Shown one piece after another: positions 34,943 through 52,350 of a DNA stretch of 64,000 nt. The DNA is from Pseudomonadales bacterium (GTDB taxonomy: Bacteria > Pseudomonadota > Gammaproteobacteria > Pseudomonadales > UBA5518). The position numbers and the translations under genes were made by a program. How positions within the stretch are numbered: position 1 is the stretch's first letter; every line of letters begins with the position of its first letter. Under the pieces are notes generated by a model that did no database searches, was not told the origin of the DNA, and worked only from the letters and a program-made list of their open reading frames with translations. The stretch covers positions 3,919-67,918 of the forward strand of contig JAJVIG010000004.1 in NCBI GenBank assembly GCA_022072145.1, given 5' to 3'.

Positions 34943-35202
34943 CACGATCTTGACGCCTGCGTCGCTATGGTTCAATTAAAGCAAAAGATGTACCGCGCTG
35001 CAAAACAGTCATGGAATCAGACGGTTTTCCGGCCGGATCGTCAATCCTTACCGGTGATCTGTAAAGAAAATCGACAAATCCTGCTGCCGGGCGGGGAGTA
35101 ACGGCTCCGGGCTTCGAGGTGCGCCTTGCGAGCGCCGGCCTTGTGCCGGAACCGGTGCGCTGTGGACAATGTCGGCCGCCGCGGCCGGACACACGGGTAG
35201 CG

Positions 35203-36027
35203 ATGATCCACAAACTGCTGCACCCCCACCACACGTTCACCGCGTTCAAGTATGGGGTCTACGGTGCGCTCGCGCTGAACGTCTGGCTGTTCTTCCGCGA
35301 GGACTGGCAAGCCGCCGTCGTCATGCTCGATACGGCGGCGCCGTGGGCGCGCTTGATCGAGGTGTTCGCGCAGACCATCGACACCTTCGCGTGGATGGTG
35401 CTGCTGGCGCTGTTCGAGCTCGAGACCTCGGTGCTGCCGGATGCCACCTTGCGGCACCCGCGCGTGAAGTGGACGCTGCACGGGGTGCGCGCGCTGTGCG
35501 CCCTCGTGATCCTGAATTCGCTGGCCGGTTACGCCGGCAAGTACCTGGGCTACCTGGAGGCCGAGCGCCTCACCCTCGAGGTCTGTTCGCTCGCCGGTGA
35601 CGGCTGGTTCCGCCTCGACGCGCTCGACGAGTTCAGCCCGCTCGACGCGGGCAACTGCGCCACGCTGGCCGGCGAGGAGGTGTTCCGGCTGCACGGAGGG
35701 CAGGTGGTGAGCTCGCTGGCGGTGCTCGCCGAGGCGCGCTGGTTCGCGTTGCTCGACGCGGTCAACGCCGCGGCCTGGATCCTGGTCGTGCTGGTGCTGG
35801 AGGTCGACGTGCGGCTGCAGTTGCGCGGCGCGTTGCGCGGCACGCTGTGGTGGACCAGCGGTGCGTGCAAGCTGCTGCTGTACACGGTGCTGCTGCTCGC
35901 GGTCGTGTTGTGGGCGTGGGACGGCGATTTGCTCGATTTCTGGGATGCGCTGCTGTGGCTGCTGGCGTTCGTGTTCATCGAGATGAACGTGTTCCAGTGG
36001 CGCCGGGAGAGCGTGCGCGCGGTCTAG
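35203..36027 (+). CDS. Hypothetical polytopic membrane protein
   Basis: 274 codons from ATG 35203 with several hydrophobic helices (VYGALALNVWLFF, AWMVLLALFELE, AAWILVVLVLEV, LLLYTVLLLAVVLWAW). No family recognised. Confidence 0.55.
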   Translation: MIHKLLHPHHTFTAFKYGVYGALALNVWLFFREDWQAAVVMLDTAAPWARLIEVFAQTIDTFAWMVLLALFELETSVLPDATLRHPRVKWTLHGVRALCALVILNSLAGYAGKYLGYLEAERLTLEVCSLAGDGWFRLDALDEFSPLDAGNCATLAGEEVFRLHGGQVVSSLAVLAEARWFALLDAVNAAAWILVVLVLEVDVRLQLRGALRGTLWWTSGACKLLLYTVLLLAVVLWAWDGDLLDFWDALLWLLAFVFIEMNVFQWRRESVRAV

Positions 36028-36968
36028 GATTCCGTTCGGTGAGCGCGCCAGCCGGGAGTCGCCTCGAGCCCCTCGGCGAGTTGCACGCGCGGTTCCCAAC
36101 CCAGCGCGGCGCCGATGGCGCGGTTGTCGCAACTCCAGTCCGGGTGGCGCAGCTCGCGCAGCTTGTGCGGCGTCAGCATCGGCGCGTGGCCGGTCCACGC
36201 GGCGAGCGCGGCGTTGGCGTGCGCGAGCAGGTCGAGCGGCCGGCGCGGGATCTCCCACACCCGCACCGCGCGCCCGCAGACGTCGGCGGTGATCGCGCAG
36301 AGCGCAGCCCAGTCGTAGCCGCCGTCGCGGCCGTCGTGCAGGCTCCATGTCGACAGGCCCGTCGCAGGCGTGGTGCACCACCGGCACGCGGCCTGCGCCA
36401 GATCGTCCACGAACAGCAGCGAGAGCCGGTCCGTGGCACGGCCGGCGCAGGGTGCCAGCCCGGTGCGCGCCATGAAGCGGAACACCGGCAGCATCTCGCG
36501 ATCCCCGGGGCCGTACACGGCCGGCGGGCGCAGCAGCGTGACCGCGCGCTTGCCGCGGTGTTCCTCGAGCAGGCGCTCGGCGGCACGCTTGCTCGCGGCG
36601 TAGTGCGAGAGCTGCGGCTCGCGCGCGGCGAGCGAGGAGAAGTGCAGCAGCGGCGCCGCCGGTGCCGCCGCGTCCAGCGCCGCCAGCAGCCGCGCCGTAC
36701 CGTCGACGTTCACCGCGTCGAAGTCCGCGCGCGTGATGCCGCGCACGGCACCGGCGATGTGGATCACGGCGTCCGCCCCGGCAACCAGTTCGCGCAGCGC
36801 CTGCGCCGACCCGAGGTCGCCGCCGACGATCGCGATGTGTGGGTCGCCCGTGCGCCGGGCGACGGCCGGATCGCGCGCCAGCACGCGCAGGCGCACTCCC
36901 GAGGAGCGCAGCAGGGAACAGACGCGGCGGCCGATGAAGCCGGTGGCTCCGGTGACCGCGACCAGCAT
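36024..36968 (-). CDS. NAD(P)-dependent epimerase/dehydratase-family SDR (candidate ceramide-pathway reductase)
   Basis: 314 codons from ATG 36966-36968. Rossmann motif VTGATGFIGRRV and YAASK catalytic dyad. Lies 26 nt downstream of the acyl-AMP ligase gene on the same strand. Confidence 0.85.
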   Translation of the reverse strand: MLVAVTGATGFIGRRVCSLLRSSGVRLRVLARDPAVARRTGDPHIAIVGGDLGSAQALRELVAGADAVIHIAGAVRGITRADFDAVNVDGTARLLAALDAAAPAAPLLHFSSLAAREPQLSHYAASKRAAERLLEEHRGKRAVTLLRPPAVYGPGDREMLPVFRFMARTGLAPCAGRATDRLSLLFVDDLAQAACRWCTTPATGLSTWSLHDGRDGGYDWAALCAITADVCGRAVRVWEIPRRPLDLLAHANAALAAWTGHAPMLTPHKLRELRHPDWSCDNRAIGAALGWEPRVQLAEGLEATPGWRAHRTES

Positions 36969-36994
36969 TCGAGCGTGCGGCAGCCGGGGAGGGG

Positions 36995-38797
36995 TCAGGC
37001 CGAGGCCTGGCGCAGTTGCGTGCCGGCGGCCACCGCGGCGATTTCGTCGAGGTCGTGGGTGTCGATGAAGTTCTGGCGTGCCTTCGAGCGCGAGAGCTTG
37101 CCCGAAGACGTGCGGGGCAGCGTGTGCGGCGGCACCAGCTCGACGTAGCAGTCGATGCCCATCTCGACGCGCACCAGGCGCGTCAGGCGCTCGATCAGCG
37201 CCGCGCGACGCACCGCGTTGGTCTCGCGGCACTGCACCACCAGCACGCAGACCTCGGCGTCGTCGGGGCCAGACACCGAGAACGCGAGCGCATCGCCGAC
37301 CCGCGTCTCGTCCTGGTGCTCGGCCAGGTACTCGAGATCCTGCGGCCAGATGTTGCGGCCGTTGATGATGATCAGGTCCTTCTTGCGGCCGGTGATCACG
37401 ATCTCGCCGTCGATGGTGTAGCCGATGTCGCCGGTGTCGAGCCAGCCGGCGGCGTCGAGCACCGCCCCGCTGTCGTCCTGCGGCCGGAAGTAGCCGGACA
37501 TCACGCTGGGGCCGCGCAGGAAAATGGTGCCGGTGCGGCGTTCGGGCAGCACGGCGCCGTCGTCGCCACGGATTTCCGTCGCGTAGCCGGGCAGCGGGGT
37601 GCCGCAGACGACGAAATCGCGCGCCCGCACCGTGGCGTCGTCGCGCGCCACGACACGTGCCTCGCCGTGGTCGGCCAGATGGTCGAGGTCGATGCGGTCG
37701 GTGGCGTAGCCGCTCGCCAGCGGAGCGAAACTCACCGCCAGCGAACATTCGGCCATGCCGTAGCAGGCAAGGAACGCGCGCGCGTCGAAACCTGCCGGGG
37801 CGAGCACCTCGGCGAAGCGGTCGAGCGTCTCGGGACGGATCATCTCGGCGCCGATGCCGGCCACGCGCCAGTGGCTCAGGTCGAAACGGGCGGCCTCGCC
37901 CTCGCGCAGGCGCCGCGCGCAGAGCTCGTAGCCGAACGAGGGGCTGAACGAGATCGTCGCCTGCGTCTGCGACATCAGGCTCAGCCACTGGCGCGGACGC
38001 ATCGCGAAGTCGCGCGTGTCCATGTAGTCGACCGGGATCTGCGCCGCGACCGGGACCAGCACCAGGCCGACCAGCCCCATGTCGTGGTAGAACGGCAGCC
38101 ACGAGAAGCAGCGGTCGGCCGGCGTGATCGCCACGCCGTGCGTGATGATGCCGGCGAGGTTGTCCATCACCGAGCGGTGGCGGATGATCACGCCGCGCGG
38201 GAAGCGCGTGCTGCCGGAGGTGTACTGCAGGTACGAGACGTCGTCGGCGCCGATCGCGGGCAACTCGCGCGGGTCTTCGGCCAGCGCATCGAATTCCTCC
38301 GGTTCGCCGATCATGCGCAGCGCCAGCCCCTCGGTGGCCTCGACCACGAACGGGATGAACGCCTCCGAGGCGATCGCCACAGCCGCGCCGCAGGCGTCGA
38401 TCAGGCCGCGCAGTTGCGCCACGTAGCTCTGGTGGCCGCCGAGGTTGATCGTCGCCGGCAGCGCGACCGGGATCAGCCCGGCGTACTGGCAGGCGAAGAA
38501 TACGCGCAGGAAATCGGGGCCGGTCTCGGCGACGATCGCGACCCGGTCACCCTTTTCCAGGCCGAGGCCGCTGAAGCGTCGCGCCAGTGCGATCGCCTGC
38601 ACCCTCAGTTCTGCATAGGGAAGCGTCGCGTAGAGTTCGCCGCGGCTGCTGTAGAAGTTCGCACCGTTCGCCCCGAGCGCCGCATAGTCCAGCGCCTCGG
38701 TGAGCGTCTGGAAGTCGGCGGCCCGGAACGGAAGGGAATGACTGGTCGGTGTCGATTCGGTCTGCAAAACGCTACCTTCGCCGTTGTTGTTCGTCAT
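36995..38797 (-). CDS. Fatty acyl-AMP ligase / acyl-ACP synthetase-type adenylating enzyme
   Basis: 600 codons from ATG 38795-38797. Adenylation motifs LQYTSGSTRFPRGV, YGMAECS, TGDIGY, SSGKLSR. The architecture is typical of FAALs. Confidence 0.9.
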   Translation of the reverse strand: MTNNNGEGSVLQTESTPTSHSLPFRAADFQTLTEALDYAALGANGANFYSSRGELYATLPYAELRVQAIALARRFSGLGLEKGDRVAIVAETGPDFLRVFFACQYAGLIPVALPATINLGGHQSYVAQLRGLIDACGAAVAIASEAFIPFVVEATEGLALRMIGEPEEFDALAEDPRELPAIGADDVSYLQYTSGSTRFPRGVIIRHRSVMDNLAGIITHGVAITPADRCFSWLPFYHDMGLVGLVLVPVAAQIPVDYMDTRDFAMRPRQWLSLMSQTQATISFSPSFGYELCARRLREGEAARFDLSHWRVAGIGAEMIRPETLDRFAEVLAPAGFDARAFLACYGMAECSLAVSFAPLASGYATDRIDLDHLADHGEARVVARDDATVRARDFVVCGTPLPGYATEIRGDDGAVLPERRTGTIFLRGPSVMSGYFRPQDDSGAVLDAAGWLDTGDIGYTIDGEIVITGRKKDLIIINGRNIWPQDLEYLAEHQDETRVGDALAFSVSGPDDAEVCVLVVQCRETNAVRRAALIERLTRLVRVEMGIDCYVELVPPHTLPRTSSGKLSRSKARQNFIDTHDLDEIAAVAAGTQLRQASA

Positions 38798-39055
38798 CGC
38801 GACGGCTGCCTCCAATCCCGTGTGAGCCGGGTGCCGACCTTGCGCCACTGCCCGGTCCCGTGCGCACCACGCACTCGCCGAGCCGGCAGGGAGCCGTTGA
38901 CCACTCACGTATTTTCGTTTGGATGGCCGCCAAATCAACCTGCACCGAGTGGTACTATTTGGCCGCGGAAGCCGCATTTTTGCGCTTTGAGACAGTCGCT
39001 AATCGGCGGATTTGAAACGAGAATCCATTCGCATCGAAGGACCGGGCGACACCCC

Positions 39056-40192
39056 ATGGCGAGCCACGCAGCAGTCGAGATCGTCGCGGCCGACAGCGCC
39101 GCGCGCCGGCGCGTCTTCCTGCAGTTGCCGCACCGGCTCTACGCGCAGGATCCGCAGTGGGTCGCGCCGCTCGAGTTCGAACTGCGCCAGCGCCTGTGGG
39201 GCGGCAATCCGTACCTGCAGCACGCCAGCGTGCAGGCCTGGGTGGCGTTGCGCGAGGGGCGTCCGGTGGGGCGGATCAGCGCGCAGTTCGACCGCCTGCA
39301 GCAGCAATACCACGACGACATGGCCGGCTCCTTCGGCCTGTTCGAGGCGGAGGACGACCCGCGCGTCGCCGAGGCGCTGCTCGAGGCGGCCGCCGCGTGG
39401 CTGCGCGGGCACGGGGCGCGGTGCCTGCGCGGCCCCCTGAACCTGTCGCTCAACGAGGAGTGCGGGCTGCTGGTCGCGGGCTTCGATACGCCGCCGTCGA
39501 TCATGATGGGGCACGGCCGGCCGTACTACGACGCGCTGCTCGCCGGTTGCGGGCTGCGCGGGGTGCGCGACCTGCTCGCCTACCGCGTGGCACCGGACTT
39601 CGCCGCGCCGCGCGTGATGCAGCGGCTCGCCGGTTCGCTCGCCGGACAGGTGCGCGTGCGCCCGTTGAGTCGCGCGCACAAGGCACGCGACCTCGGGATC
39701 CTGCGCGAGGTGTTCAACGACGCGTGGTCGCAGAACTACGGCTTCGTGCCGTTCACGGTCGAGGAGTTCGACGAGGTCGGCCGGTTGATGATGCTGCTGC
39801 TGCCCGAGGACTACGTGCAGATCGCCGAGGTCGACGGCGAACCCGCGGCATTCATCGTCGCCATGCCGAACATCCACGAGATCACCGCGAAGTTGCACGG
39901 GCGGCTGCTGCCGTTCGGCTGGCTGCGGCTGCTGTGGGGCGTGAAGGTGCGCCACCCGAAGAGCGCGCGCGTGCCGCTGATGGGCGTGCGCCGCCGCTAC
40001 CAGCACTCGCGCCTCGGTCCCGGGCTCGCGTTCATGGTGATCGATGCCGTGCGCAAGGGGCTGTGCGCGCGCGGCGTGCGCGCAGTGGAACTGTCGTGGA
40101 TCCTCGAGGACAACGCGGGGATGCGCGGCATCATCGAGGCGATCGGCGGCACGGTCTACAAGCGGTACCGCCTCTACGAGAAGGCGCTCTAG
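39056..40192 (+). CDS. Large GNAT-fold N-acyltransferase (candidate bacterial ceramide synthase)
   Basis: 378 codons from ATG 39056, the tail of track ORF 37016..40192. C-terminal GNAT-like core (VRRRYQHSRLGPGLAF...VELSWILEDNAGM). Divergent from the FAAL gene. Confidence 0.7.
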   Translation: MASHAAVEIVAADSAARRRVFLQLPHRLYAQDPQWVAPLEFELRQRLWGGNPYLQHASVQAWVALREGRPVGRISAQFDRLQQQYHDDMAGSFGLFEAEDDPRVAEALLEAAAAWLRGHGARCLRGPLNLSLNEECGLLVAGFDTPPSIMMGHGRPYYDALLAGCGLRGVRDLLAYRVAPDFAAPRVMQRLAGSLAGQVRVRPLSRAHKARDLGILREVFNDAWSQNYGFVPFTVEEFDEVGRLMMLLLPEDYVQIAEVDGEPAAFIVAMPNIHEITAKLHGRLLPFGWLRLLWGVKVRHPKSARVPLMGVRRRYQHSRLGPGLAFMVIDAVRKGLCARGVRAVELSWILEDNAGMRGIIEAIGGTVYKRYRLYEKAL

Positions 40193-40195
40193 ACG

Positions 40196-41011
40196 ATGTC
40201 CGACCGCTCCGCCGCCCCGTCGTTCGCCGCCATCGTGCTCGCCGGCGACCGCTCCGCCGCCGACCCGCTGGTCGCGGCGTCCGGACGCGGCGCCAAAGCG
40301 CTGCTGGCGATCGACGGCACGCCGATGCTGCTGCGCGTGCTGGACGCACTGGCGCGTTCACGCAGCGTGGGCGCGGTCACGCTGAGCGGTCCGGCGCACG
40401 AGGCGGTCGCCGCCGACGCGCTGCTGCAGCGCCGGCTCGCCGATGGCGCACTCGCATGGGTGCCCGCACAGGCCACGCCGAGCACCAGCGCCGCGCAGGC
40501 GCTGGCCGGCATCGACGCGCGCACACCGGTGCTGCTGACCACCGCGGATCATCCGCTGCTCGCGCCGGCGATGGTCGAGCATTTCTGTGCCGCCGCGCTG
40601 GCGAGCGGCGCCGACGTCGCGGTGGGACTCGCGCCGTATGCGCTGGTGTGCGCGAACTTCCCGACCATGCGCAAGACCGTGCTGCGATTCAGCGACGACG
40701 CGTACTGCGGCTGCAACCTGTTCGCGTTCCTCACGCCGGCCGGGCGCCGCATGGCGGATCTGTGGCGGGCGGTGGAGGCCGAGCGCAAGTCGCCGCTGAA
40801 GGTGATGCGGATGCTCGGCTGGACGTCGGTGCTGCGCTACCGGATGGGGTGGTTGTCGCTGGACGGTGCCGCGCAGGCGCTGTCGCGGCGCACCGGGATC
40901 GCGATCGCAGCGGTCACGCTGCCGTTCGGCGATGCCGCGGTCGACGTCGATTCGCCCGCGGACTTCACGCTGGTCGAACAACGCCTGCGCGCGCTGCGCG
41001 GCGCCGCCTGA
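40196..41011 (+). CDS. MobA-like NTP-transferase domain protein
   Basis: 271-aa ORF with N-terminal AAIVLAGDRS...KALLAIDGTPMLLRVLDAL, typical of GT-A/MobA-like nucleotidyltransferases. Lies 3 nt after the GNAT gene. Confidence 0.65.
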   Translation: MSDRSAAPSFAAIVLAGDRSAADPLVAASGRGAKALLAIDGTPMLLRVLDALARSRSVGAVTLSGPAHEAVAADALLQRRLADGALAWVPAQATPSTSAAQALAGIDARTPVLLTTADHPLLAPAMVEHFCAAALASGADVAVGLAPYALVCANFPTMRKTVLRFSDDAYCGCNLFAFLTPAGRRMADLWRAVEAERKSPLKVMRMLGWTSVLRYRMGWLSLDGAAQALSRRTGIAIAAVTLPFGDAAVDVDSPADFTLVEQRLRALRGAA

Positions 41012-41035
41012 GCGAGCGGCGCCGGGCTCCGGCGC

Positions 41036-42136
41036 TCAGACGGGCAGGATGCGCATTTGCTGGTAGAGGCGCACGTACTTGCGCACCATGTCCAGCGAAT
41101 CCTCGCAACCGTGGAAGCCCGCCTTGCGCAGCTTGATCGTGCTGACCAGACCCCAGCGCAGCGGATCGCTGCCGGCGGGCAGGTCCATCACGTTGCTCAT
41201 CTCCAGCGAGCCGCTGAACAGTTCGGTCACGTCCTCGGGAGCGTGCAGGCCGTAGCGCCTGACCATCGCGGGCCACATCCCGGCCATCTCGCGCACCTCC
41301 TGCGCGGCGTTCACCCGGCGCGGTTCGCCGAGCGCCATGCCGAAGCAGTCGGCGACCACCGGAAAGCGTTCCCGATGCGATACCACGTCGCCGTTGGAGA
41401 TGTTGAAGGTCTCGTCGCGCGCCGCCGGCGCGTCCGCGGCCCAGGCGAGCGCCTCGGCGATGAGGTCGGCGTCGGTGGCCTCGTTGACCATGCAGACACC
41501 GGCGGGCAGCGGCAGGTCGAGCCCGGCCTCGCGCCGCAGCGCGGCGTACAGGGGCAACATCAGGAAGGCGTTCATCGGCGAGCCGATCGCCGCGCCGGCG
41601 ATGCCGACCGGGCGCCACACGGTCCAGTGCCAGCCCTGCCCGTGCTGGCGCGCGCGGATGTAGTCTTCCTGCTCGTGATAGAAGTTCGGGTGCACCGGCC
41701 GCGGCAGGCATTCGCGCATCGGGATCGGCACGTGGGCATCCGGCAGGTGGCAGCCGTAGGCCTTGGCGCCGTGCACCAGCGACACGTGCCGCAAGCCCTT
41801 GGCGACCGCGACCAGCGGTTCCATCAGGTTGCGCAGCATCGCGGCGTTCTTGGCGATCTGCACCGGATCGGACCAGCCGCCATAGATGTCGTCGAGTTTC
41901 TCGGCGACCGCCGTGTACACCACGTGCGTGACCTCGCTCATCGCGCCGAAGGCCGCAGCGCAGGCGCGCTCGTCGGCCAGATCCACCGCCACGTGGCGCA
42001 CGCGCGCCGGCATCGCGAGCGGCGGGCGCCGCGACACCGCGATCACGTTCCAGTCCTCGCGGGCGCCGAAGTAACGCACGGCGGCGCTGCCTACCAGACC
42101 GGACGCGCCGGCGACGATGATCGTTCTGCTGCTCAT
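41036..42136 (-). CDS. SDR-family NAD(P)-dependent oxidoreductase (extended SDR)
   Basis: 366 codons from ATG 42134-42136. Rossmann motif IIVAGASGLVGSA. Confidence 0.8.
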   Translation of the reverse strand: MSSRTIIVAGASGLVGSAAVRYFGAREDWNVIAVSRRPPLAMPARVRHVAVDLADERACAAAFGAMSEVTHVVYTAVAEKLDDIYGGWSDPVQIAKNAAMLRNLMEPLVAVAKGLRHVSLVHGAKAYGCHLPDAHVPIPMRECLPRPVHPNFYHEQEDYIRARQHGQGWHWTVWRPVGIAGAAIGSPMNAFLMLPLYAALRREAGLDLPLPAGVCMVNEATDADLIAEALAWAADAPAARDETFNISNGDVVSHRERFPVVADCFGMALGEPRRVNAAQEVREMAGMWPAMVRRYGLHAPEDVTELFSGSLEMSNVMDLPAGSDPLRWGLVSTIKLRKAGFHGCEDSLDMVRKYVRLYQQMRILPV

Positions 42137-42183
42137 GCATGGCTCCTGTGTGATGGGGGTGCGCCGTCTCGCCGCCGCGGGCC

Positions 42184-43122
42184 TCAGGCCGTACGCGACA
42201 CCTCGAAGCTCGCGAGCGGTCGCTGTACGAACGTTCCCGACGCGGCGTCTTGGCGGCGTGCGTCGATGCGCACCTGCCAGCCGCCCGTGCCCGGCGTGAC
42301 GGTGCAGACATTGTATTCGGCGGCGTGGGCGGACAGCACGCCCGCGGCCGAAGCCGACGGGATGCCGAACACCGGAATCGCGCTGCCGGGGACGCGGATC
42401 AGGCTCTGCAGCGCGCGGTGACGGTGCCCGTGCAGCACCAGGTCGACCGGCGCGCGGCGCAGCAGCGCGCACAGCGCCGCGGCATCGATGAGCCGCTTGC
42501 GCCACTTCTCCTCGCCCGGCACCGGCGGATGGTGCAGCAGCAGCACGCGCAGCAACCCGCGACCGCGCAGTCCCTCGAGCAGGGATTCGAGCCGCGCGAG
42601 CTGCGTGGCGCCGATGCGCCCGATCGCCATGAACGGCGGCGAGGCGATCGCGCTGTCCAGCCCGATGAACGCCACCGCGCCGCGCACGCGCAGCAGCGGG
42701 AACGGATCGTCCGCGCGGCGTCCGTCGGGAGGCGCGTCGGAACGCATGAACTCGCTCCACTGGCCGCAGGATTCCTCCCACGTGCCGCGCACATAGCGGT
42801 CATGGTTGCCGGGCACCACGGTCACGCGGTCCGGGCTGCCGATCGTCTGCAGCCAGCGGCGGGCGGAGGCGAATTCCTCGGGCAAGGCGATGTTCGTGAG
42901 GTCGCCGGTGACGACGGTGTGGTCCGGCGCCAGCGCGAGCAGGTCGGCGCGCAGCGCGTCCAGCATCTCCGGGCGGTGCTCGTGGCGACGCCGGCGTTGC
43001 CACGACAGGTAGCCCAGCACGCGCTTGCTCGCCAGGCGCCGCCAGCGCACCGCCGACAGATCCGAGAGGTGCGGATCGGACAGGTGCGCGAAACGGAATG
43101 CTCCGTGGGCGCCGGAACTCAC
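42184..43122 (-). CDS. Calcineurin-like metallophosphoesterase
   Basis: Motifs FAHLSDPHL, VVTGDLTN, VVPGNHD, LLLHHPP, LVLHGHRH. There is no in-frame ATG near the N-terminus; GTG 43120-43122 overlaps the upstream TGA (GTGA). Confidence 0.85.
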   Translation of the reverse strand: MSSGAHGAFRFAHLSDPHLSDLSAVRWRRLASKRVLGYLSWQRRRRHEHRPEMLDALRADLLALAPDHTVVTGDLTNIALPEEFASARRWLQTIGSPDRVTVVPGNHDRYVRGTWEESCGQWSEFMRSDAPPDGRRADDPFPLLRVRGAVAFIGLDSAIASPPFMAIGRIGATQLARLESLLEGLRGRGLLRVLLLHHPPVPGEEKWRKRLIDAAALCALLRRAPVDLVLHGHRHRALQSLIRVPGSAIPVFGIPSASAAGVLSAHAAEYNVCTVTPGTGGWQVRIDARRQDAASGTFVQRPLASFEVSRTA

Positions 43123-44303
43123 GCGCCGTTCCGCAGCGAGGCGAAGGCGTCGACGATGCGGTCGATCTGGTCGTCGGTGTGCGCCGCGCCGACACTGCAG
43201 CGCAGCAGGCTGAACGTCGACGGCGAGGCGGGCGGAACCACCAGGTTCACGTAGACACCGCGCTCGAGCAGTTCGGGCCACCAGCGCAGCGCCGTGGCGC
43301 GATCCTCGAGGCGCACCGCGACCACCGGACCCGGCTCCGGCCCCAGCGTGAAACCCAGTCCCGCGAGCCCGGCGTAGAGCCGCTCGGCGTTGCGCCACAA
43401 CTGTTCGCGCAGGTGCGGGCGCTCGCGCAGGTGGCGCAGTGCCACGCGGGTAGAGGCGATCACCGACGGCGACGGCGAGGCGGTGAAGATGTAGGAGCGG
43501 ATCGAGAAGCGGATCGCCTCGAGCTCGGGCCGGTTGCTGACGCAGTATCCCCCGATCGAGCCCAGGCTCTTGCTGAACGTGCCGACCACGAAGTCCACCG
43601 CGTCCTCGACGCCCGCGGCCTCGGCGAGCCCGCGGCCGTGTGCGCCCAGCACGCCCAGCGAATGCGCCTCGTCGACCATCAGGCAGAAATCGTGGCGCTC
43701 CTTGAGCCGGGCGATCTCGGCGAGTGGCGCGCGGTCGCCGAGCATGCTGTAGATGCCCTCGACGATCACCAGTGCGTCCGCCGCGCGCTCGCCCAGCCGC
43801 TCGAGCCGGCGCTCGAGGTTCGCGGCATCGCTGTGGCGGAAGCGGATCACCTCGGCGCCGCCCAGGCGCACGCCGTCGTAGATGCTGGCGTGGCTGTCGG
43901 CGTCGAGCAGCACCACGTCGCCGGGGCCGGCGAGGGTCGCGCCCATGCCCATGGTCGCGCTGAAGCCGGTGGAGAACACGATCGCGTGGCGCCGGCCATA
44001 GAAGGCCGCGAGTTCCTGCTCCAGCGCCACGTGGTCGGCGAAGGTGCCGTTGGCCATCCGCGAGCCGGTGGTGCCGGTGCCCTGTTCGGCCAGTGCGCGC
44101 TGCGCGGCGGCGATGCATTCCGGGTCGAAGGTCAGCCCGAGGTAGTTGTTGGTGCCCGCGAGTATCACGCGGCGGCCATCGACGATCGCCTCGGTGGAGG
44201 AAAGGATCTTCTCGGTCACGGCGCCGAACGGACGGATGCCGAGCGCGTCGAGTTCGGCGCGCACCTCCGCCATCGGGGTGAACTTCTGTAGCAGCCGGTT
44301 CAT
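43119..44303 (-). CDS. spt: Alpha-oxoamine synthase, serine palmitoyltransferase-like
   Basis: 394-aa ORF. The PLP-lysine motif GTFSKSLGSIGG and downstream IFTASPSPSV...LLRCSVGAAHT are closely colinear with Sphingomonas-type SPT (GTFSKSVGTVGG...) rather than with BioF or Kbl. Confidence 0.85.
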   Translation of the reverse strand: MNRLLQKFTPMAEVRAELDALGIRPFGAVTEKILSSTEAIVDGRRVILAGTNNYLGLTFDPECIAAAQRALAEQGTGTTGSRMANGTFADHVALEQELAAFYGRRHAIVFSTGFSATMGMGATLAGPGDVVLLDADSHASIYDGVRLGGAEVIRFRHSDAANLERRLERLGERAADALVIVEGIYSMLGDRAPLAEIARLKERHDFCLMVDEAHSLGVLGAHGRGLAEAAGVEDAVDFVVGTFSKSLGSIGGYCVSNRPELEAIRFSIRSYIFTASPSPSVIASTRVALRHLRERPHLREQLWRNAERLYAGLAGLGFTLGPEPGPVVAVRLEDRATALRWWPELLERGVYVNLVVPPASPSTFSLLRCSVGAAHTDDQIDRIVDAFASLRNGA

Positions 44304-44542
44304 CCGGTGAGATCCGCGACGGTGCGCGCCAGGTCGCCGGCGGTGCGGATCCCGGACAGGGCGTTGAGCGGGAACGACAGGTCGAATTCGTCCTCGATCT
44401 GTTCGATGACCTCCATCACGTCGATCGACGACAGTCCCAGTTCGCCGGCGAGATCGCTGTCGGCCGTGATCGGCCGCGAGGTCTTGCCGGGTGCCGCGAG
44501 CAGTTCGAGCACCCGCGTGAGGCAGGAATCGTAGCGTGCCAT
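44300..44542 (-). CDS. Acyl carrier protein (dedicated, pathway-specific)
   Basis: 80-aa ORF with the phosphopantetheine attachment motif LGLSSIDVMEV. Its stop overlaps the spt ATG (ATGA). Confidence 0.9.
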   Translation of the reverse strand: MARYDSCLTRVLELLAAPGKTSRPITADSDLAGELGLSSIDVMEVIEQIEDEFDLSFPLNALSGIRTAGDLARTVADLTG

Positions 44543-44633
44543 CGTGCGTTTTTCCCGAGCGGCGCGGCGTGTCGCGCCAACGCGGGCGATTATACTGGGG
44601 CGGTTGCGCGCCGCACCTCCCGCCGCCGCGCCA

Positions 44634-45728
44634 ATGTTGGTGATTTTCAGGTACGTGTCAGTCATCCCCGGTGCTTCGCCTCCCTTGGTCTGGATCATCG
44701 CCGCGTACCGCGCCGGCGAACAGAGCCAGTTGCTCGCGCTCGCCGAGGCGCTCGGGTGGCCGTACGAGGTCAAGCGGCTGCGCCACCGGCGCGCCGGCGC
44801 GCTGTACGACGTGACGCGCGCGAACGGACTGTGTGGCATCGATCGCGCGCGCTCCGATGCGCTCGCGCCGCCGTGGCCCGAGGTGGTGATCGCGGCCGGG
44901 ATGCGCAACGAGCCGGTGTGCCGCTGGATCCGCCACGCCTCGGGCGGGCGCACGCGCATCGTGCACATCGGGCGTCCGTGGGCGCCGCTCGCCGCCTTCG
45001 ACCTCGTGGTCACCACGCCGCAGTACCGCCTGCCGCCGGCGCCGAACGTGTTGCAGAACACCTTGACGCTGCACCGTGTCACGCCGGCGCGGCTGGCCGA
45101 GGCCCACGCAGTGCACGGCGAGCGCCTCGCGCGGCTGCCGTCGCCGCGCATCGCGCTGATCGTCGGCGGCCCGAGCGGACCGTTCCACTTCGGCGCGCGC
45201 GGCGCGGCGCGGCTCGCACGCGAGGCGTCGGCGCACGCGCACGCGCTGGGTGGCAGCCTGCTGGTCAGCACCAGTTCGCGCACGCCGGCGCCGGCGGTGC
45301 GTGCGCTGTGCGAGGCAATCGAGGTGCCGCACGAGTTCTACGCGTGGCGCGCCGGCGATGCCGGGAATCCGTATTACGCGTATCTCGCCTGCGCCGAGAG
45401 GCTGATCGTGAGCTTCGACAGCATCGCGATGATCTCGGAGGCCTGCGCTACCGGCAAGCCCGTGTACCTGTTCGATCCGCAACGCGCGCACGGCGGTGAC
45501 GCGGCGCCCGCGGTCGAGCACAGTCCGCGCGCGCTCGGCTACCGCGCCCTGCTGCGCTGGGGGCCGCGCCGGTTGGGGCGCGACATCACGCTGGTGCACG
45601 ATCGACTGCTCGCGGCCGGGCGCGTCGCGTGGCTGGGCGAGGGGCGCGAACCGCAGGACCTGAATCCGTCGCCCGACATCGAACGCGCGGTCGCGCGCGT
45701 GAGGGCGCTGCTCGATGAGCGCCGCTGA
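44634..45728 (+). CDS. ELM1-like (DUF1022, 'mitochondrial fission ELM1') family protein
   Basis: 364 codons from ATG 44634 within track ORF 44544..45728. Family assigned from overall resemblance (VWIIAAYRAGEQSQ..., IALIVGGPSGPF, LLVSTSSRTP, SIAMISEACATGKPV). TATACT at 44591-44596 could be its -10 element. Confidence 0.6.
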   Translation: MLVIFRYVSVIPGASPPLVWIIAAYRAGEQSQLLALAEALGWPYEVKRLRHRRAGALYDVTRANGLCGIDRARSDALAPPWPEVVIAAGMRNEPVCRWIRHASGGRTRIVHIGRPWAPLAAFDLVVTTPQYRLPPAPNVLQNTLTLHRVTPARLAEAHAVHGERLARLPSPRIALIVGGPSGPFHFGARGAARLAREASAHAHALGGSLLVSTSSRTPAPAVRALCEAIEVPHEFYAWRAGDAGNPYYAYLACAERLIVSFDSIAMISEACATGKPVYLFDPQRAHGGDAAPAVEHSPRALGYRALLRWGPRRLGRDITLVHDRLLAAGRVAWLGEGREPQDLNPSPDIERAVARVRALLDERR

Positions 45729-45749
45729 AGCGCACCGGAAGCGAGTGCG

Positions 45750-46826
45750 CTAGCGCGGGCGGTGCGAGGCTGCCGCGATCGCCAGCGCGATCGCCGCCGC
45801 GATGCAGATCGGCACCAGCACCACGATGCCCTGGCGCAGCCCGAGCAGCTGCCCGCCGGTGTGCAGGATCTGCGTGAACAGGTAGAAACCGACGCCGGCC
45901 ACCGCGCCGCCGAGCACCCGCCAGCCGAAGCCCGCGCTGCGCGCGCTGCCGAAGTGCCAGCCGATCACCACCGCGAACAGCACCATCACCGCAGCCGACA
46001 GGGGCAACGTGGCTTTCTGCCAGAAGGCCATGCGCACCTGCGCATCGTCCTGGCCGGTGGCGCGCAGGTGGTCCGCGTACGCGAGCAGCGCGCTCGGGGA
46101 CATCGCGGCCAGCGAGCGCCCCAGCGCCGGGAGTTCGTCGGCGGACCAGAACGGCCCCAGCTCGAGGCGCTCCAGCGTGCGCATCTCGATGCCCTGCGGC
46201 TGCCATTCCTTGAAGCGCACCTCGCGCAGCGTCCAGGCGCGGGTCTGCGGCACCTCGGCCGACGTCGCGCCGATCACGCGCCGCAGACGGTGATCGGGTC
46301 CGAACTCGTACAGCGCGATTCCTTCCGGGATGTGCCCGTCGCGCAGGTGGCGCACGTTGAAGAAGCGCCCGCCGCTGCGCGACCACAGCCCCTGGCCGGC
46401 GAGCAGGTCGAGGTTGCCGGTGCGCCGCACCACGCGTTCGGACTCCGCCTTCTGCAGCATCGGTGCGACCAGCCATTCGCCGGCCGCGTACAGCCCCGCG
46501 ACCACCAGCAGCGTCGGCAGCGCGGCGATCGCGAGCAGTTGCCTGAGCGAGACGCCGGCACCGCGGATCACTACCAGTTCGCTCGAGCGGCTGAGGTTCG
46601 CGAGCGCGAGCACGGTGCCGAGCGCCGTTATCACCGGCGCGAGTTCCAGCACGCGCTGCGGCGTGGTCAAGAGCACGTACTGCAGCGCGTGCGTGAAATG
46701 GTAGCGGTCACCGAGGTTGTCGAGCTCGCTGACCAGCGCGAGCAGGCTGAACAGTGCCGCCAGCACCGTGAACACGATCAGCCAGCCGCGGACCAGATGT
46801 CCGGCGACGAAACGCGCGATGATCAC
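45750..46826 (-). CDS. lptG: LPS export ABC transporter permease LptG
   Basis: 358-aa YjgP/YjgQ-family permease. It overlaps the lptF stop by 4 nt. Confidence 0.9.
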   Translation of the reverse strand: MIIARFVAGHLVRGWLIVFTVLAALFSLLALVSELDNLGDRYHFTHALQYVLLTTPQRVLELAPVITALGTVLALANLSRSSELVVIRGAGVSLRQLLAIAALPTLLVVAGLYAAGEWLVAPMLQKAESERVVRRTGNLDLLAGQGLWSRSGGRFFNVRHLRDGHIPEGIALYEFGPDHRLRRVIGATSAEVPQTRAWTLREVRFKEWQPQGIEMRTLERLELGPFWSADELPALGRSLAAMSPSALLAYADHLRATGQDDAQVRMAFWQKATLPLSAAVMVLFAVVIGWHFGSARSAGFGWRVLGGAVAGVGFYLFTQILHTGGQLLGLRQGIVVLVPICIAAAIALAIAAASHRPR

Positions 46827-47896
46827 CCGCGCGCCCTCGCGAGCCGCAGCCGCGGCCAGCCGAGCAGCATCGCGAGCAGCGCCAGCGGCGGCAGGTACGC
46901 GAGCAGCAGGCCGGGGAATGCCGGGACGTCACCGTTCTCCAGCGAGTTGCGCACGCCGCTCAGGATGGCGAACAGCAGCAGATAGGCACCGATAGCAACC
47001 GCCAGCGTGCTCGCTCTCGGCTGGCGCGGGTTCGCGCGGGCGAGCGGCACCGCGAGCAGTCCCAGCATCAGGGTCGACAGCGGTGTGCTGAGACGCCACT
47101 GGTACTCCGCGATCTCCTTCGGTTCAGTGGAAGCGGCCAGCACCGCGGTGGCCGCCGACTTGCGGCGGAAACGCTCGATGCGCTCCTCCTGCGGGAAGCG
47201 GATCAGGAAGCTGCCGAAGCGCATCTCCACGTCGCGCGGGCCGTCGCGCTCGAGCAGGTACGAGTAGCCGTCGAAGAACTCCACCGAACGCGATCCCTCC
47301 TCGTCCATGTCATGGATGCGCGCGCTCGTGGCCGCGATCACCTGCGAGCGCAGGCCCTGATCGACCTGCACGAACACGTCGCGCAGTTCGCCGGCCGCGG
47401 CATCGACTTCCTGTGCGTACAGCACGTAGCCGCCGTTGCCCATGTCCACGAAGGTGCCCGGACGGATGTTCGAGATGTCGAAGCGGCTGATGCTGCGCTG
47501 TTCGAGTTCGTAGCTGCGCGTGTAGACCCACGGGCGCACCTGGGTCGAGATCCATCCCACCAGCAGCGCGCAGAGCAGCGCGAGCTTGCCCACTGCCCAC
47601 AGCACGCGGACCTCGCCGATGCCGGCGGACTGCATCGCTGCCATCTCGGACTCGCGGTGCAGACGCCCGACCGCGAGCAGCACGGCGAGGAACAGCGTGG
47701 TCGGAATCAGTACCTCCAGCGACACCAGCGTGTTCAGGAAGATCAGCTCGGCGACCACCGGTGCGGCGATTTCCCCGCTCGCCGCCTCCGACAGACGCAC
47801 GGCCGTGCTGAAGGCGACCGACACGGTGGCCAGCATCGCGAGCCCGGCGGCGAAGGGCCGCAGGATCTCGGAGGTGAGGTAGCGCTCGATCAGCAT
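46823..47896 (-). CDS. lptF: LPS export ABC transporter permease LptF
   Basis: 357 codons from ATG 47894-47896 (MLIERYLTSEILRPF...). YjgP/YjgQ family. Confidence 0.9.
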   Translation of the reverse strand: MLIERYLTSEILRPFAAGLAMLATVSVAFSTAVRLSEAASGEIAAPVVAELIFLNTLVSLEVLIPTTLFLAVLLAVGRLHRESEMAAMQSAGIGEVRVLWAVGKLALLCALLVGWISTQVRPWVYTRSYELEQRSISRFDISNIRPGTFVDMGNGGYVLYAQEVDAAAGELRDVFVQVDQGLRSQVIAATSARIHDMDEEGSRSVEFFDGYSYLLERDGPRDVEMRFGSFLIRFPQEERIERFRRKSAATAVLAASTEPKEIAEYQWRLSTPLSTLMLGLLAVPLARANPRQPRASTLAVAIGAYLLLFAILSGVRNSLENGDVPAFPGLLLAYLPPLALLAMLLGWPRLRLARARG

Positions 47897-47987: not shown

Positions 47988-48722
47988 TCAGCCGAGCGCC
48001 GCGCGCACCCGCTCGAGGTCCGCCGGGGTGTCGACCGCGATGCTCGCGGTCGCCAGGGCGAGCATGTGCACCTCGATGCCGAGATCCAGGAAGCGCAGGA
48101 TCTCGATGTCCTCGACCCGCTCGAGCGGCGGACGCTCGCCGGCGGCGACGAAAGCCGCCAGCTGCTGGCGCGAGAAGGCGTAGATGCAGACCTGCTTGTG
48201 CGCGCCGGCAAAGGCGCCGCTCTTGCTGCACGGGATCGCGGCCCGGCTCATGTAGAGCAGCCGGCCGTCGCGCGCGGCCGCGACCTTCGGCACGTCGCGG
48301 GACCTGAACTCGCGCTCGTCGGTGATCGCGGTCATGGCGTTCACCACCGCCCGCGCGCCCAGGCGGCGGAAAGTGTCGGCGACGCGCACGATGTCCTGCG
48401 GATCGATCAGCGGCTCGTCGCCCTGCACGTTCACGATGAAGCCGCTCTCGATCCGTGCGGCGGCGCGGGCCACGCGATCGGTGCCGGTGGCGCAGTCGGG
48501 CGGCGTCATGATCACGCGGGCGCCAAAGGACGCGCAGGTCGCGCGGATGCGCGCGTCGTCGGTCGCGACGAACACGCGATCGCGCGTGGCGGCAGCGCAG
48601 CAGCGCTCCCAGACGTGGTGGATCATCGGCTTGCCGTGGATGTCGGCGAGCGGCTTGCCCGGGAAACGCGACGAGGCGAAACGGGCCGGGATCACGATCG
48701 CGAACTCAGCTGGCGACGGCAT
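47988..48722 (-). CDS. kdsB: 3-deoxy-manno-octulosonate cytidylyltransferase-like (CMP-Kdo synthetase family)
   Basis: 244 codons from ATG 48720-48722. IVIPARFASSRFPGKPLADIHGKPMIHHV, TGTDRVA, VNVQGDEPLI and VDTPADLERVR are colinear with E. coli KdsB. Whether this is the housekeeping copy cannot be told from this window. Confidence 0.75.
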   Translation of the reverse strand: MPSPAEFAIVIPARFASSRFPGKPLADIHGKPMIHHVWERCCAAATRDRVFVATDDARIRATCASFGARVIMTPPDCATGTDRVARAAARIESGFIVNVQGDEPLIDPQDIVRVADTFRRLGARAVVNAMTAITDEREFRSRDVPKVAAARDGRLLYMSRAAIPCSKSGAFAGAHKQVCIYAFSRQQLAAFVAAGERPPLERVEDIEILRFLDLGIEVHMLALATASIAVDTPADLERVRAALG

Positions 48723-50337
48723 GCAGTTCACCCTGGTCAACGGGGTAGCTGGTCGGGGTCGCGGCGGCGAGCGTGAGGCCCGCGCGCTCCAGCGCCGGGC
48801 GTGCCAGCGCCAGCAGTTCGAGCATCTCCTGCTGGCGTGGATCACCGGCCGCGAAGCCGTCGAAGCCGGCCAGCAGCACGCGGCGGGCGCCGCCGGCCAC
48901 GCACAGCGCGAGCGCGTATGCGCAGGCGAGCGGCGCCGGCAGCACGCAGCCGTCGCGACGCGCCTCGAAGCAGTGTCCGCGCAGCTCGCAGTCGTAGTCG
49001 AGCACGGTGGCGTCGCGCAGCGTCGCGCGGGTCTGTGCGTCGTGCAGGCGCCGCGGCGTCCATACCGGCTTGCCGCTGGCAGCCAGGTGGCTCGCCTCGC
49101 ACAGCAGTCGCAAGGCATCGATGCAGACGAAGGCATCGACCAGGTGCGGGTCGAGCGCGTCCTGGCGGTTGAGCGCGAGCACCAGCGGCCGCCGGGCGCG
49201 TATGTAGTCGCCAAGCTCGCGTACGCGCCGGCGCGCCCCGTCGCCGGCGCCGATCAGCAGTACCTCGGCGCCGGCGAAGCGGCCCAGATCCGGTGCGGCG
49301 CGGGCCGCGGCGGGCGGCGCCGCAGGCGCGAAGGCGTGCATGGTCAGCGCGATCTCGCTGCGGCTGAAGCGGCTCGCATCGCGCGCCGCGAGCGCGCGCA
49401 GCGCCGCGAAGCGCTCCTCGGGTGAATAGCGCGGATCACCGATCAGCGTCTGCGCGAACATCGGATGGATGCCGCGCAACGCGCAGTAGTGGTAGTAGAA
49501 ACCCGGTCCCCAACCGTGGCGGCGGCGCAGGGGCACGAAATACCGCTCGCACAGACGCTGCAGCTCCCGCAACCGCTCGTCGTGCGCGCCGCCGGTGTCG
49601 AGCTCGCAGAGCAGCAGTTCGAGCGCCGCGTTGCCGGCGCCGCGCCCCATGCCGGCGACCGTGCAATCGGCCACGCACGCGCCGTGCGCGATCGCCGCCA
49701 GGGTGTTGGCCACCGCCAGCGAGCGGTTGTCGTGCGCGTGGAAGCCGAGCTCGCCGCGCCACTGCGTCCTCACCGCCGCACAGGCGCGCGCGGTCGCGGC
49801 CGGATCCAGCGCACCGAAGGAATCCGCGAGGCAGAGGATCTGCACGCAACCCCAGCCGGCGACGTCGCGCGCCGCCTGTGCGAGCCGCGCCGGCGCGATG
49901 CCCGCGACCTGCATCAGGTTCAACCCCACGCCATAGCCGAGGCGAGCCAGCGCCTCGGCGATCGCGCGGCTGCGCCCGAGGTCGGCGAGCCGCACCGCGA
50001 TGCGCACCAGCGCCACCCGCGAGGCGGCACGCGGCGCGAAGGCGCGCACGATCGCGGCGCCGGGATCGTCGGCTGCGGCCAGCGCGTCGTCGGCATCGAC
50101 CATCACCGCCACGTCCAGCGCGGGCGGGATGTCGAGGGTGTCGAGCAGGGCGTCGCTCGCGTGGGCGAACGGGCCGGCGCCCGGCAGCTCGCGCAGCGCG
50201 CGGAAACCGGGCTCTACGATGTCCACACCGACCGCCGCGAGCGTGTGCAGATACGTCGTGACCAGACCGGCATCGAAGCGCCAGCCGGTGTGGTAGCCGC
50301 CGTCGCGCAGCGTGCAGTCGAGGATGCGCGGCCTCAT
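48706..50337 (-). CDS. HMGL-like (pyruvate-dependent) aldolase domain protein with a long C-terminal extension
   Basis: 543-aa ORF. The N-terminus ILDCTLRDGGY...GFHAHDN...AGMGRGAGNA is the HMGL/DRE-TIM aldolase signature. The C-terminal ~230 aa (LLIGAGDG...) is of unknown function. Confidence 0.75.
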   Translation of the reverse strand: MRPRILDCTLRDGGYHTGWRFDAGLVTTYLHTLAAVGVDIVEPGFRALRELPGAGPFAHASDALLDTLDIPPALDVAVMVDADDALAAADDPGAAIVRAFAPRAASRVALVRIAVRLADLGRSRAIAEALARLGYGVGLNLMQVAGIAPARLAQAARDVAGWGCVQILCLADSFGALDPAATARACAAVRTQWRGELGFHAHDNRSLAVANTLAAIAHGACVADCTVAGMGRGAGNAALELLLCELDTGGAHDERLRELQRLCERYFVPLRRRHGWGPGFYYHYCALRGIHPMFAQTLIGDPRYSPEERFAALRALAARDASRFSRSEIALTMHAFAPAAPPAAARAAPDLGRFAGAEVLLIGAGDGARRRVRELGDYIRARRPLVLALNRQDALDPHLVDAFVCIDALRLLCEASHLAASGKPVWTPRRLHDAQTRATLRDATVLDYDCELRGHCFEARRDGCVLPAPLACAYALALCVAGGARRVLLAGFDGFAAGDPRQQEMLELLALARPALERAGLTLAAATPTSYPVDQGELHAVAS

Positions 50338-52240: not shown

Positions 52241-52350
52241 GGCGCCGCCGGCGCGGGGTTCCTGCGGTAGAGTCGTGGCGGCGAGTATACGGGGGCGCGC
52301 GCATTCCCGATAATCGCCGTCGCCGCCAGACCCGCAGCCGGAGACCACCG

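Follow-up and report, generated by a model that had tools for sequence, protein, structure and literature searches.

A probable sphingolipid island with a variant head-group and export module in a Pseudomonadales bacterium

Gene content and extent of the island

The 64-kb stretch of Pseudomonadales bacterium DNA analyzed here (GenBank assembly GCA_022072145.1, contig JAJVIG010000004.1; hereafter the window) carries a run of lipid-related genes of ~16 kb, from position 36024 to about 52243. Since their domain content matches that of the 17-gene sphingolipid cluster of Caulobacter crescentus (PMC11324152), we consider the region very likely to be a sphingolipid island of the 'rhodobacterial' type, as in C. 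crescentus and Escherichia coli B. Its ceramide core is a known kind of system, and its head-group and export module is a variant.

Nine intact open reading frames (ORFs) occupy 36024-45728, with a third-position G+C content (GC3) of 0.90-0.95 in a window of ~70% G+C. The initial annotation had described this nine-gene component set as a complete cluster; the set is present, and the Pfam and NCBIfam assignments agree with the earlier list. The limit drawn at 36024-45728 (9.7 kb) proved too narrow, as further genes of this system, co-directional and overlapping, follow up to ~52243. The six genes from the kinase gene through lptG are co-directional. Within this run, overlaps of 4-35 nt join the kinase, Tam41-like, fusion, and CMP-transferase genes to one another (4 nt on both sides of the Tam41-like gene, 17-35 nt between the fusion and CMP-transferase genes). 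The lptF and lptG genes share 4 nt, and between the CMP-transferase gene and lptF there is a gap of 91 nt. A promoter and terminator scan was uninformative in DNA of 70% GC.

It is hardly credible that the region is a silent or decaying relic without a lipid product. Such decay would have parallels in the yghO-yghT remnant of E. coli K-12 and in the pseudogenized aasR of Azotobacter vinelandii. Here, however, none of the 15 island ORFs (GC3 0.89-0.95) is truncated compared with its homologs or carries a frameshift, and the genes recur at 90-97% conservation in an independent metagenome-assembled genome (MAG; locus L003) and in several sequencing runs.

The window also encodes LpxD, FabZ, LpxA, and LpxB at 15.5-18.7 kb, all above their NCBIfam equivalog cut-offs. 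Lipid A genes are thus present in the organism as well, in line with the earlier mention of lpxA/B/D in the same window.

Table 1 Features of the sphingolipid island and an adjoining gene (positions in the window; cut-offs in bits).
Feature	Position	Strand	Evidence
Predicted multi-pass membrane protein, 274 aa, convergent on cerR	35203..36027	+	Island membership uncertain
CerR-type reductase, NDUFA9-like extended short-chain dehydrogenase/reductase (SDR1)	36024..36968	-	Pfam Epimerase E=1e-26
AasR-type fatty acyl-AMP ligase (FAAL)/acyl-ACP synthetase	36995..38797	-	NF006624, 814 bits (cut-off 600)
bCerS/YghO-type N-acyltransferase, GNAT-like, 378 aa	39056..40192	+	YghO homology; weak Acetyltransf_1
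MobA/CofC-like NTP transferase	40196..41011	+	PF12804 E=1.5e-13
PRISE-family SDR (SDR2), enone/C=C reductase type	41036..42136	-	PF22917
Calcineurin-like metallophosphoesterase	42184..43122	-	PF00149 E=7e-13
Spt, alpha-oxoamine synthase containing GTFSKSLGSIGG	43119..44303	-	NF047599, 607 bits (cut-off 500)
AcpR-type dedicated acyl carrier protein (ACP)	44300..44542	-	PF00550 E=2.5e-11
ELM1-family GT-B-fold protein	44634..45728	+	PF06258 E=1e-62, 212 bits
LptG paralog (LptG2 type)	45750..46826	-	PF03739; TIGR04408 261 bits (cut-off 240)
LptF paralog (LptF2 type)	46823..47896	-	TIGR04407 286 bits (cut-off 230)
KdsB-like CMP-transferase (CTP_transf_3)	47988..48740	-	PF02348 E=3e-41; NF009905 293 bits
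Aldolase/MptE-like two-domain fusion, 543 aa	48706..50337	-	N-terminal HMGL-like, PF00682 E=2e-29
Tam41/Mmp37-like nucleotidyltransferase	50334..51260	-	PF09139, 28.1 bits (cut-off 24)
DAGK-family lipid kinase	51257..52243	-	PF00781 E=6e-13; NGGDGS in translation

The ceramide core

All five ceramide genes stand together in E. coli BL21(DE3) and have been listed beside their Caulobacter counterparts: aasR (ECD_02851 = CC_1165), epi or cerR (ECD_02852 = CC_1164), acpR (ECD_02853 = CC_1163), spt (ECD_02854 = CC_1162), and aca or bcerS (yghO/ECD_02850 = CC_1154) (PMC9386255). We took the BL21 region from RefSeq and compared the proteins by BLASTP; the links to Caulobacter run through the BL21 proteins or through the literature. 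The five core proteins of the island match those of the BL21 cluster at 43-58% identity, with 94-99% of the window protein covered for four of them. This bears out the initial proposal that Spt, ACP, acyl-ACP synthetase, GNAT protein, and reductase form the same set as in Caulobacter.

Profile and database scores identify the alpha-oxoamine synthase as a genuine serine palmitoyltransferase (SPT) rather than a BioF, Kbl, or HemA enzyme. It passes the NCBIfam Spt profile (Table 1) and stays below the cut-offs of the other families, with 319 bits for bioF (cut-off 426), 304 for Kbl (460), 219 for ALAS (339), and 189 for the CqsA type (428). Among PDB sequences, the SPTs of S. wittichii (435 bits), S. 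paucimobilis (413), and Sphingobacterium (291) score above Kbl (226), ALAS (197), cysteate acyltransferase (192), BioF (169), and CqsA (125). The comparison with BioF, Kbl, and HemA on which the earlier identification had been made to depend thus places the enzyme with the SPTs. Lys245 (the lysine for pyridoxal phosphate), His138, Asp211, His214, and Arg368 align with the SPT active site, whose residues in the S. paucimobilis enzyme we take to be Lys265, His159, Asp231, His234, and Arg390. The position of Arg378 in S. paucimobilis SPT is occupied by Val in the window protein and by Leu in the E. coli BL21 SPT. The latter enzyme, which is active in vitro and forms 3-oxosphinganine (PMC9386255), is 57.6% identical to the window Spt (E=1.6e-158).

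An alpha-oxoamine synthase, an ACP, and a FAAL are also found in other lipid and natural-product pathways, and cysteate acyltransferase and CqsA are among the PDB matches of Spt. Nevertheless, it is highly improbable that a generic alpha-oxoamine synthase makes a non-sphingolipid amino-lipid here, such as a cysteate-derived sulfonolipid of the capnine type, a CAI-1-like alpha-hydroxyketone, or a polyketide-like amine. Both of these PDB matches score far below the 413-435 bits of the two best SPTs, the CqsA-type model stays far below its cut-off, the closest characterized relative makes 3-oxosphinganine, and the complete five-gene ceramide set is present.

The ACP gene lies directly upstream of spt and overlaps its start by 4 nt. 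The protein shares 45% identity with E. coli BL21 AcpR over 51 of 80 residues (E=2.5e-13), and the phosphopantetheine serine of its GL-x-S-I motif aligns with that of E. coli AcpR. The FAAL is 49% identical to BL21 AasR (E=0), which belongs to the same NCBIfam subfamily (NF006624, 870 bits) and acylates its cognate AcpR, not CoA or AcpP (PMC9386255). The GNAT-like protein is 45.7% identical to BL21 YghO over 361 of 378 residues (E=2e-114), so that the relatedness to bCerS on which the initial annotation had made its case contingent is found through YghO, the counterpart of CC_1154. Its Acetyltransf_1 score of 20.5 bits lies just below the cut-off of 20.7, and many of its relatives have a precomputed PF00583 match; a sequence search of the PDB found no relatives of it.

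Which of the two short-chain dehydrogenases/reductases (SDRs) acts as CerR had been regarded as not deducible from sequence. We consider the question settled at the level of a candidate: SDR1 is the CerR candidate, since it is homologous to BL21 epi (42.7% identity over 300 aa, E=4e-60), its PDB matches are mostly NDUFA9/39-kDa subunits of complex I, and its gene adjoins aasR. The NDUFA9-like matches agree with the published description of CerR, and an NAD(P) site, GATGFIG, is found at residues 8-14. The adjacency recurs in a survey of 84 spt loci (80 closest species-genome loci and 4 metagenome contigs, given below as L numbers), in which ORFs were clustered by BLASTP: FAAL and CerR genes are adjacent in 29 of 29 loci that have both. 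SDR2 was rejected as CerR, as it has no BLASTP match to epi and its best PDB matches are PRISE enzymes (progesterone 5-beta-reductase and iridoid synthase, 94-113 bits), not NDUFA9. Its gene stands at the end of the acpR-spt operon, and PRISE recurs among the 84 loci only in L003, whose Spt is 97% identical; SDR2 is a lineage-specific addition.

Homology to the core pathway was tested here, and we infer its chemistry from the characterized proteins. The AasR-type ligase would charge the dedicated ACP with a free fatty acid, and Spt would join the acyl-AcpR with L-serine to give 3-oxosphinganine. The YghO/bCerS-type N-acyltransferase would then add the second acyl chain, and the NDUFA9-like SDR (CerR) would reduce the N-acylated long-chain base at its 3-keto group to yield dihydroceramide.

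Head-group, decoration, and export genes

Besides the ceramide genes, the 17-gene Caulobacter cluster encodes a ceramide kinase (CC_1160), a Tam41-like protein (CC_1161), a CDP-alcohol transferase (CC_1159), a calcineurin-type phosphoesterase (CC_1158), an HIT protein (CC_1157), and LptF/G paralogs (CC_1155/1156), as well as a CofC/MobA-like protein (CC_1153), whose gene comes right after bcerS, and a nucleotidyltransferase (CC_1152) (PMC11324152). CC_1161 (CpgC), with its Tam41 domain, is required for ceramide phosphoglycerate (CPG); CC_1153 is needed for CPG2, and CC_1158 contributes to it (PMC11324152). The CDP-alcohol phosphatidyltransferase CpgA (CC_1159) and the PF00483 nucleotidyltransferase CC_1152 are both needed for CPG2.

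Several of these proteins have predicted counterparts in the island. By Pfam type and gene order, the MobA-like gene appears to be the domain and positional counterpart of CC_1153; it directly follows the bCerS gene, an order shared by CC_1154-CC_1153, Neut_1100-1101, and Avin_44290-44300. The metallophosphoesterase is a likely domain counterpart of CC_1158, and the 4-nt overlap of its start with the end of spt suggests coupled translation. Likewise, the Tam41-like protein would correspond by domain to CpgC and the lipid kinase to the ceramide kinase CpgB (CC_1160), with which it shares a GGDG motif. The MobA-like, metallophosphoesterase, and ELM1-like genes had been described as three extra genes relative to Caulobacter. 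Given the content of the 17-gene cluster, the first two do have Caulobacter counterparts by domain and position, and the description holds for the ELM1-like gene, which has none.

Other parts of the Caulobacter cluster are missing. No PF01066 or PF00483 match was found among the island proteins, and the CDP-alcohol transferase motif D-G-x2-A-R...G-x3-D-x3-D is absent from all frames of the 64-kb window; such genes may be present in another part of the genome. Since the CDP-alcohol transferase, PF00483, and HIT genes are missing and the ELM1-like, fusion, CMP-transferase, and PRISE genes stand in their place, the lipid probably carries a polar head group unlike the one in Caulobacter. The later steps can be outlined from domains, operon structure, and the conservation of the neighborhood. 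The CpgB-like kinase may phosphorylate ceramide, and the Tam41-like and CofC/MobA-like nucleotidyltransferases together with the metallophosphoesterase may process nucleotide-activated intermediates, as proposed for Caulobacter CPG. The LptF/LptG paralogs would most likely pass the completed lipid to the Lpt bridge that leads to the outer membrane.

The ELM1-like gene is divergent from acpR-spt. Its protein is a member of PF06258, a family of the GT-B clan CL0113, and is predicted to adopt the GT-B fold with two Rossmann domains. An AlphaFold (AF2) model built from a 40-sequence alignment has a pLDDT of 89.5 and a pTM of 0.87, and the top 50 Foldseek matches in the PDB are nearly all GT-B enzymes (probability 0.99-1.00, modest TM-scores of 0.33-0.48), including UDP-GlcNAc 2-epimerase, MurG, WaaG, polysialyltransferase, TarL, and heptosyltransferase II, for which the probability is 1.0 and the TM-scores are 0.35-0.48. 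A PDB sequence search gave no matches, and our literature searches found neither a biochemically characterized PF06258 member nor a link between ELM1/PF06258 and bacterial sphingolipids. From the modeled fold and the gene's position, we infer that the protein is a candidate ceramide or ceramide-phosphate glycosyltransferase.

The 84 surveyed loci place the island among related gene arrangements. Families found near spt include an MsbA-like ABC exporter (56 loci), ELM1-like proteins (54, often in 2-3 copies), LptF (46), MobA-like (43), LptG (40), FAAL (38), GNAT (35), metallophosphoesterase (32), CerR (30), sulfotransferase (26), Tam41-like (12), NeuB (10), and DAGK (7). Where both partners are present, GNAT and MobA genes adjoin in 34 of 34 loci, LptF and LptG in 39 of 39, and DAGK and Tam41-like genes in 5 of 5; ELM1 lies within 600 nt of spt in 49 of 52. 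Two designs can be told apart. The gammaproteobacterial one consists of LptF-LptG-ABC, a divergent ELM1 gene, AcpR-Spt with or without the metallophosphoesterase, MobA-GNAT, and FAAL-CerR, often with sulfotransferases; that of Deltaproteobacteria and Nitrospirae consists of Tam41, DAGK, metallophosphoesterase, LptGF, MobA, GNAT, FAAL, CerR, ACP, Spt, ABC, and NeuB. The window combines the gamma-type core with Tam41 and DAGK and lacks the ABC exporter. The gamma-type design, with its ELM1-like protein, LptF/LptG, usually the MsbA-like exporter, and often sulfotransferases, is a common arrangement among marine and uncultured Gammaproteobacteria. None of the 80 closest loci from the genome scan is alphaproteobacterial.

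Near spt, ELM1 and NeuB are mutually exclusive (53 and 10 loci, respectively, with both in none). NeuB and a classical SDR replace ELM1 in L038-L040, L049, L055, L060, L061, L069, and L082, which are from Deltaproteobacteria, Nitrospirae, and Methylomirabilota. One to three sulfotransferase genes occur in gamma spt clusters (Halieaceae, Thiogranum, Thiohalobacter, Porticoccaceae), always with ELM1 (26 of the 84 loci). Gamma clusters of this kind, among L004-L080 (e.g., L042:1-9000, L056, L062, L068), also hold a 2OG-Fe oxygenase and 2-3 ELM1 paralogs beside LptF-LptG-ABC. The sulfotransferase-bearing clusters hint at sulfated glycosphingolipids. A family of ~311 aa adjoins ELM1 paralogs in 21 spt loci (e.g., L007:1950-2966); it has no Pfam match at E up to 10, and a relationship to Tam41 was rejected (BLASTP E=64).

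LptF and LptG of the island exceed the equivalog cut-offs for lipopolysaccharide (LPS) export, modestly (Table 1), and the cytidylyltransferase just reaches that of kdsB (155.3 bits against 155.2). These scores, together with a promoter-like site in the gap before lptF, would fit an alternative in which only the 9.7-kb ceramide core is functional and the LptF/LptG, KdsB-like, and fusion genes are ordinary LPS or polysaccharide neighbors. We consider it unlikely. The equivalog cut-offs do not discriminate, because RefSeq/PGAP gives the spt-linked paralogs of E. coli BL21(DE3) the same name, 'LPS export ABC transporter permease LptG/LptF' (NC_012971, 2994920-2997066; L085:4920-7066), and these share just 28-29% identity with the housekeeping pair (4397810-4399992). 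Since the window LptF scores 157 bits against the spt-linked BL21 LptF and 97 against the housekeeping LptF, and LptG likewise 144 and 114, we read the two as probable sphingolipid-linked paralogs. LptF-LptG moreover lies inside spt clusters in 39-46 of the 84 loci, across several phyla, as well as in E. coli BL21 and Caulobacter. The interval between the ELM1-like gene and lptG (45728-45750) has only 21 nt where 56 of the 84 related loci have the MsbA-like exporter; this exporter was lost from the island or is encoded elsewhere in the genome.

The aldolase/MptE-like fusion protein belongs to a family of 642 representatives (E<=1e-30), most of which have an architecture of ~540 aa. Its N-terminal domain is a DmpG-type pyruvate-aldolase, HMGL-like TIM barrel, which matches 4-hydroxy-2-oxovalerate aldolases and PDB entry 3dxi (123 bits). 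The latter shows this N-terminal domain from a member of the family and has a target-normalized TM-score of 0.83 to the AF2 model of the fusion (pLDDT 90.9). The C-terminal domain, which carries the motifs G-x-GPS and GFDGY, has no Pfam match at E up to 10; a weak PF01973 (MptE-like) match was found in 6 of 40 relatives (best E=2e-4), and the best PDB match of its profile is MptE pyrophosphokinase (E=0.015). Since Foldseek with the whole model returned TIM barrels only among the 50 matches listed, the C-terminal fold stays weakly assigned, and the domain is at best tentatively MptE-like or DUF115-like. Members of DUF115 include putative CMP-sugar transferases.

The fusion and CTP_transf_3 genes form a module (47988-50337 in the window; L091-L170 in metagenomes) that is widespread, mostly in marine metagenomes and often with an HAD phosphatase. 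Among 80 metagenome loci of the fusion gene, a CTP_transf_3 homolog follows in 58 and an HAD phosphatase in 40; spt is found in none, which fits the alternative of polysaccharide neighbors. In the island, however, the two genes sit between the Tam41-like and kinase genes and lptF, joined by the overlaps described above, and a role in sphingolipid decoration is inferred from this operon position. The pair looks like a module for a CMP-activated keto-deoxy acid; our literature search found nothing on its function. Because of the conserved pairing, and because CTP_transf_3 is occasionally fused to the aldolase protein (2 of 40 family representatives), we judged the KdsB-like gene unlikely to be the housekeeping kdsB. 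Apart from the window, the fusion gene was found in none of the surveyed spt loci (the short L003 contig stops before that region), and a weak CTP_transf_3 homolog (37-40% identity) is found in two other spt loci.

A more specific scheme would make the product an anionic glyco- or phospho-sphingolipid mimicking lipid A that carries 3-deoxy-D-manno-oct-2-ulosonic acid (Kdo). Together with the KdsB-like enzyme, the fusion protein would produce a CMP-activated acid of the 3-deoxy-2-ulosonic type. The ELM1-family protein, the MptE-like domain, or both would link this acid to ceramide or ceramide-1-phosphate, and the dedicated LptF/LptG would export the product. As a whole, this scheme is doubtful. 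If it were true, ELM1-family proteins would be previously unrecognized ceramide glycosyltransferases of gammaproteobacterial sphingolipid clusters.

Several points weigh against the reading of the whole region as one sphingolipid island. The Tam41 match is weak (28 bits against a cut-off of 24), and the equivalence to CC_1153, CC_1158, CC_1160, and CC_1161 is one of Pfam domain type and synteny only. The fusion/CMP-transferase pair never stands beside spt in the other 164 loci examined and could be a neighboring glycan module. The 64-kb window contains one LptFG pair and one KdsB-like gene, which makes shared use with LPS possible, and the island lacks the MsbA-like flippase present in 56 of the 84 related loci.

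Bacterial sphingolipids can partly substitute for LPS. In Caulobacter, the anionic ones permit the loss of lipid A, determine how sensitive the cell is to polymyxin, and have an effect on virulence (PMC9393093, PMC11324152). The window joins a known ceramide core to a different decoration and export set, and the survey puts forward particular genes as candidates for the head-group enzymes and transporters that are still missing for bacterial sphingolipids. An annotation trap comes to light as well, as spt-linked LptF/LptG and KdsB-like paralogs are given housekeeping names.

As for the flanks, the 274-aa membrane protein that converges on cerR has no match in Pfam (E up to 10) or NCBIfam, and a homolog stands beside cerR in the close relative L084 only. 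A small ORF at 34742-34975(-), between a SpoU methyltransferase gene and the island, has the position of the DUF6316 gene of L001, L083, and L084. On the other side, an F420-dependent LLM-class oxidoreductase gene (52351-53418(+); TIGR03617, 350 bits, cut-off 278) is divergent from the kinase gene and is not conserved beside spt in related loci.

Comparison with known systems

The five-gene core with the kinase, Tam41-like, and LptFG genes has already been published for Alpha-, Beta-, and Gammaproteobacteria, and NCBI models would already name the spt gene of the window. Caulobacter CC_1152-CC_1168 and the window share aasR, cerR, acpR, spt, and bcerS, the CofC/MobA-like gene after bcerS, a DAGK-type kinase gene beside the Tam41-like gene, a calcineurin-type phosphoesterase, and LptF/LptG inside the cluster. 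The island lacks genes of the CC_1159, CC_1157 (HIT), CC_1152 (PF00483), LptC2, flippase, and CC_1167 types. Its extras, compared by domain and not by identity, are the ELM1-like GT-B protein, the PRISE SDR, the aldolase/MptE-like fusion, and CTP_transf_3.

The E. coli BL21(DE3) locus, yghO-aasR-epi-acpR-spt-lptG-lptF, has the same core, the same aasR-cerR and acpR-spt pairs, and spt-linked LptG/LptF. The MobA-like, metallophosphoesterase, ELM1-like, Tam41-like, and kinase genes of the window are absent there, and the locus instead has YtfJ, an MOP-type 'LPS biosynthesis protein', and ATP-binding proteins. The contiguous 13-gene clusters of the gammaproteobacteria A. vinelandii and Pseudomonas luteola share with the window the core, a CC_1153-like gene, LptF2/G2, the kinase, and the Tam41-like gene (PMC11324152). 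These clusters keep CC_1159 and CC_1152 and lack CC_1158, whereas the opposite is found in the window; by their published consecutive locus tags, they apparently leave no room for an ELM1-like gene (PMC11324152).

For the ELM1-like protein, the nearest parallels are GtrOC1 of Acinetobacter baumannii and other PF06258 (Mito_fiss_Elm1) proteins of the lipooligosaccharide (LOS) outer core, likened by family and not by sequence identity. These are predicted glycosyltransferases acting on a lipid-anchored glycan, with GtrOC1 proposed for the first outer-core linkage. Their predicted substrate is LOS, while the window gene is tied to acpR-spt. The fusion and CMP-transferase pair resembles the modules for CMP-ulosonic acids (KdsA/KdsC/KdsB for Kdo and NeuB/NeuA for sialic acids), which likewise combine an aldol-type condensing enzyme with CTP_transf_3 and often an HAD phosphatase. 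However, the condensing domain in the window is an HMGL/DmpG-type pyruvate aldolase, unlike the KdsA or NeuB fold, and the likeness to Maf/MptE-like DUF115 proteins is weak (E=2e-4 to 0.015). The part in which the island differs from the known systems is thus its decoration module, with the ELM1-like protein, the fusion and CMP-transferase, and the PRISE reductase, and without the CPG2-specific transferases.

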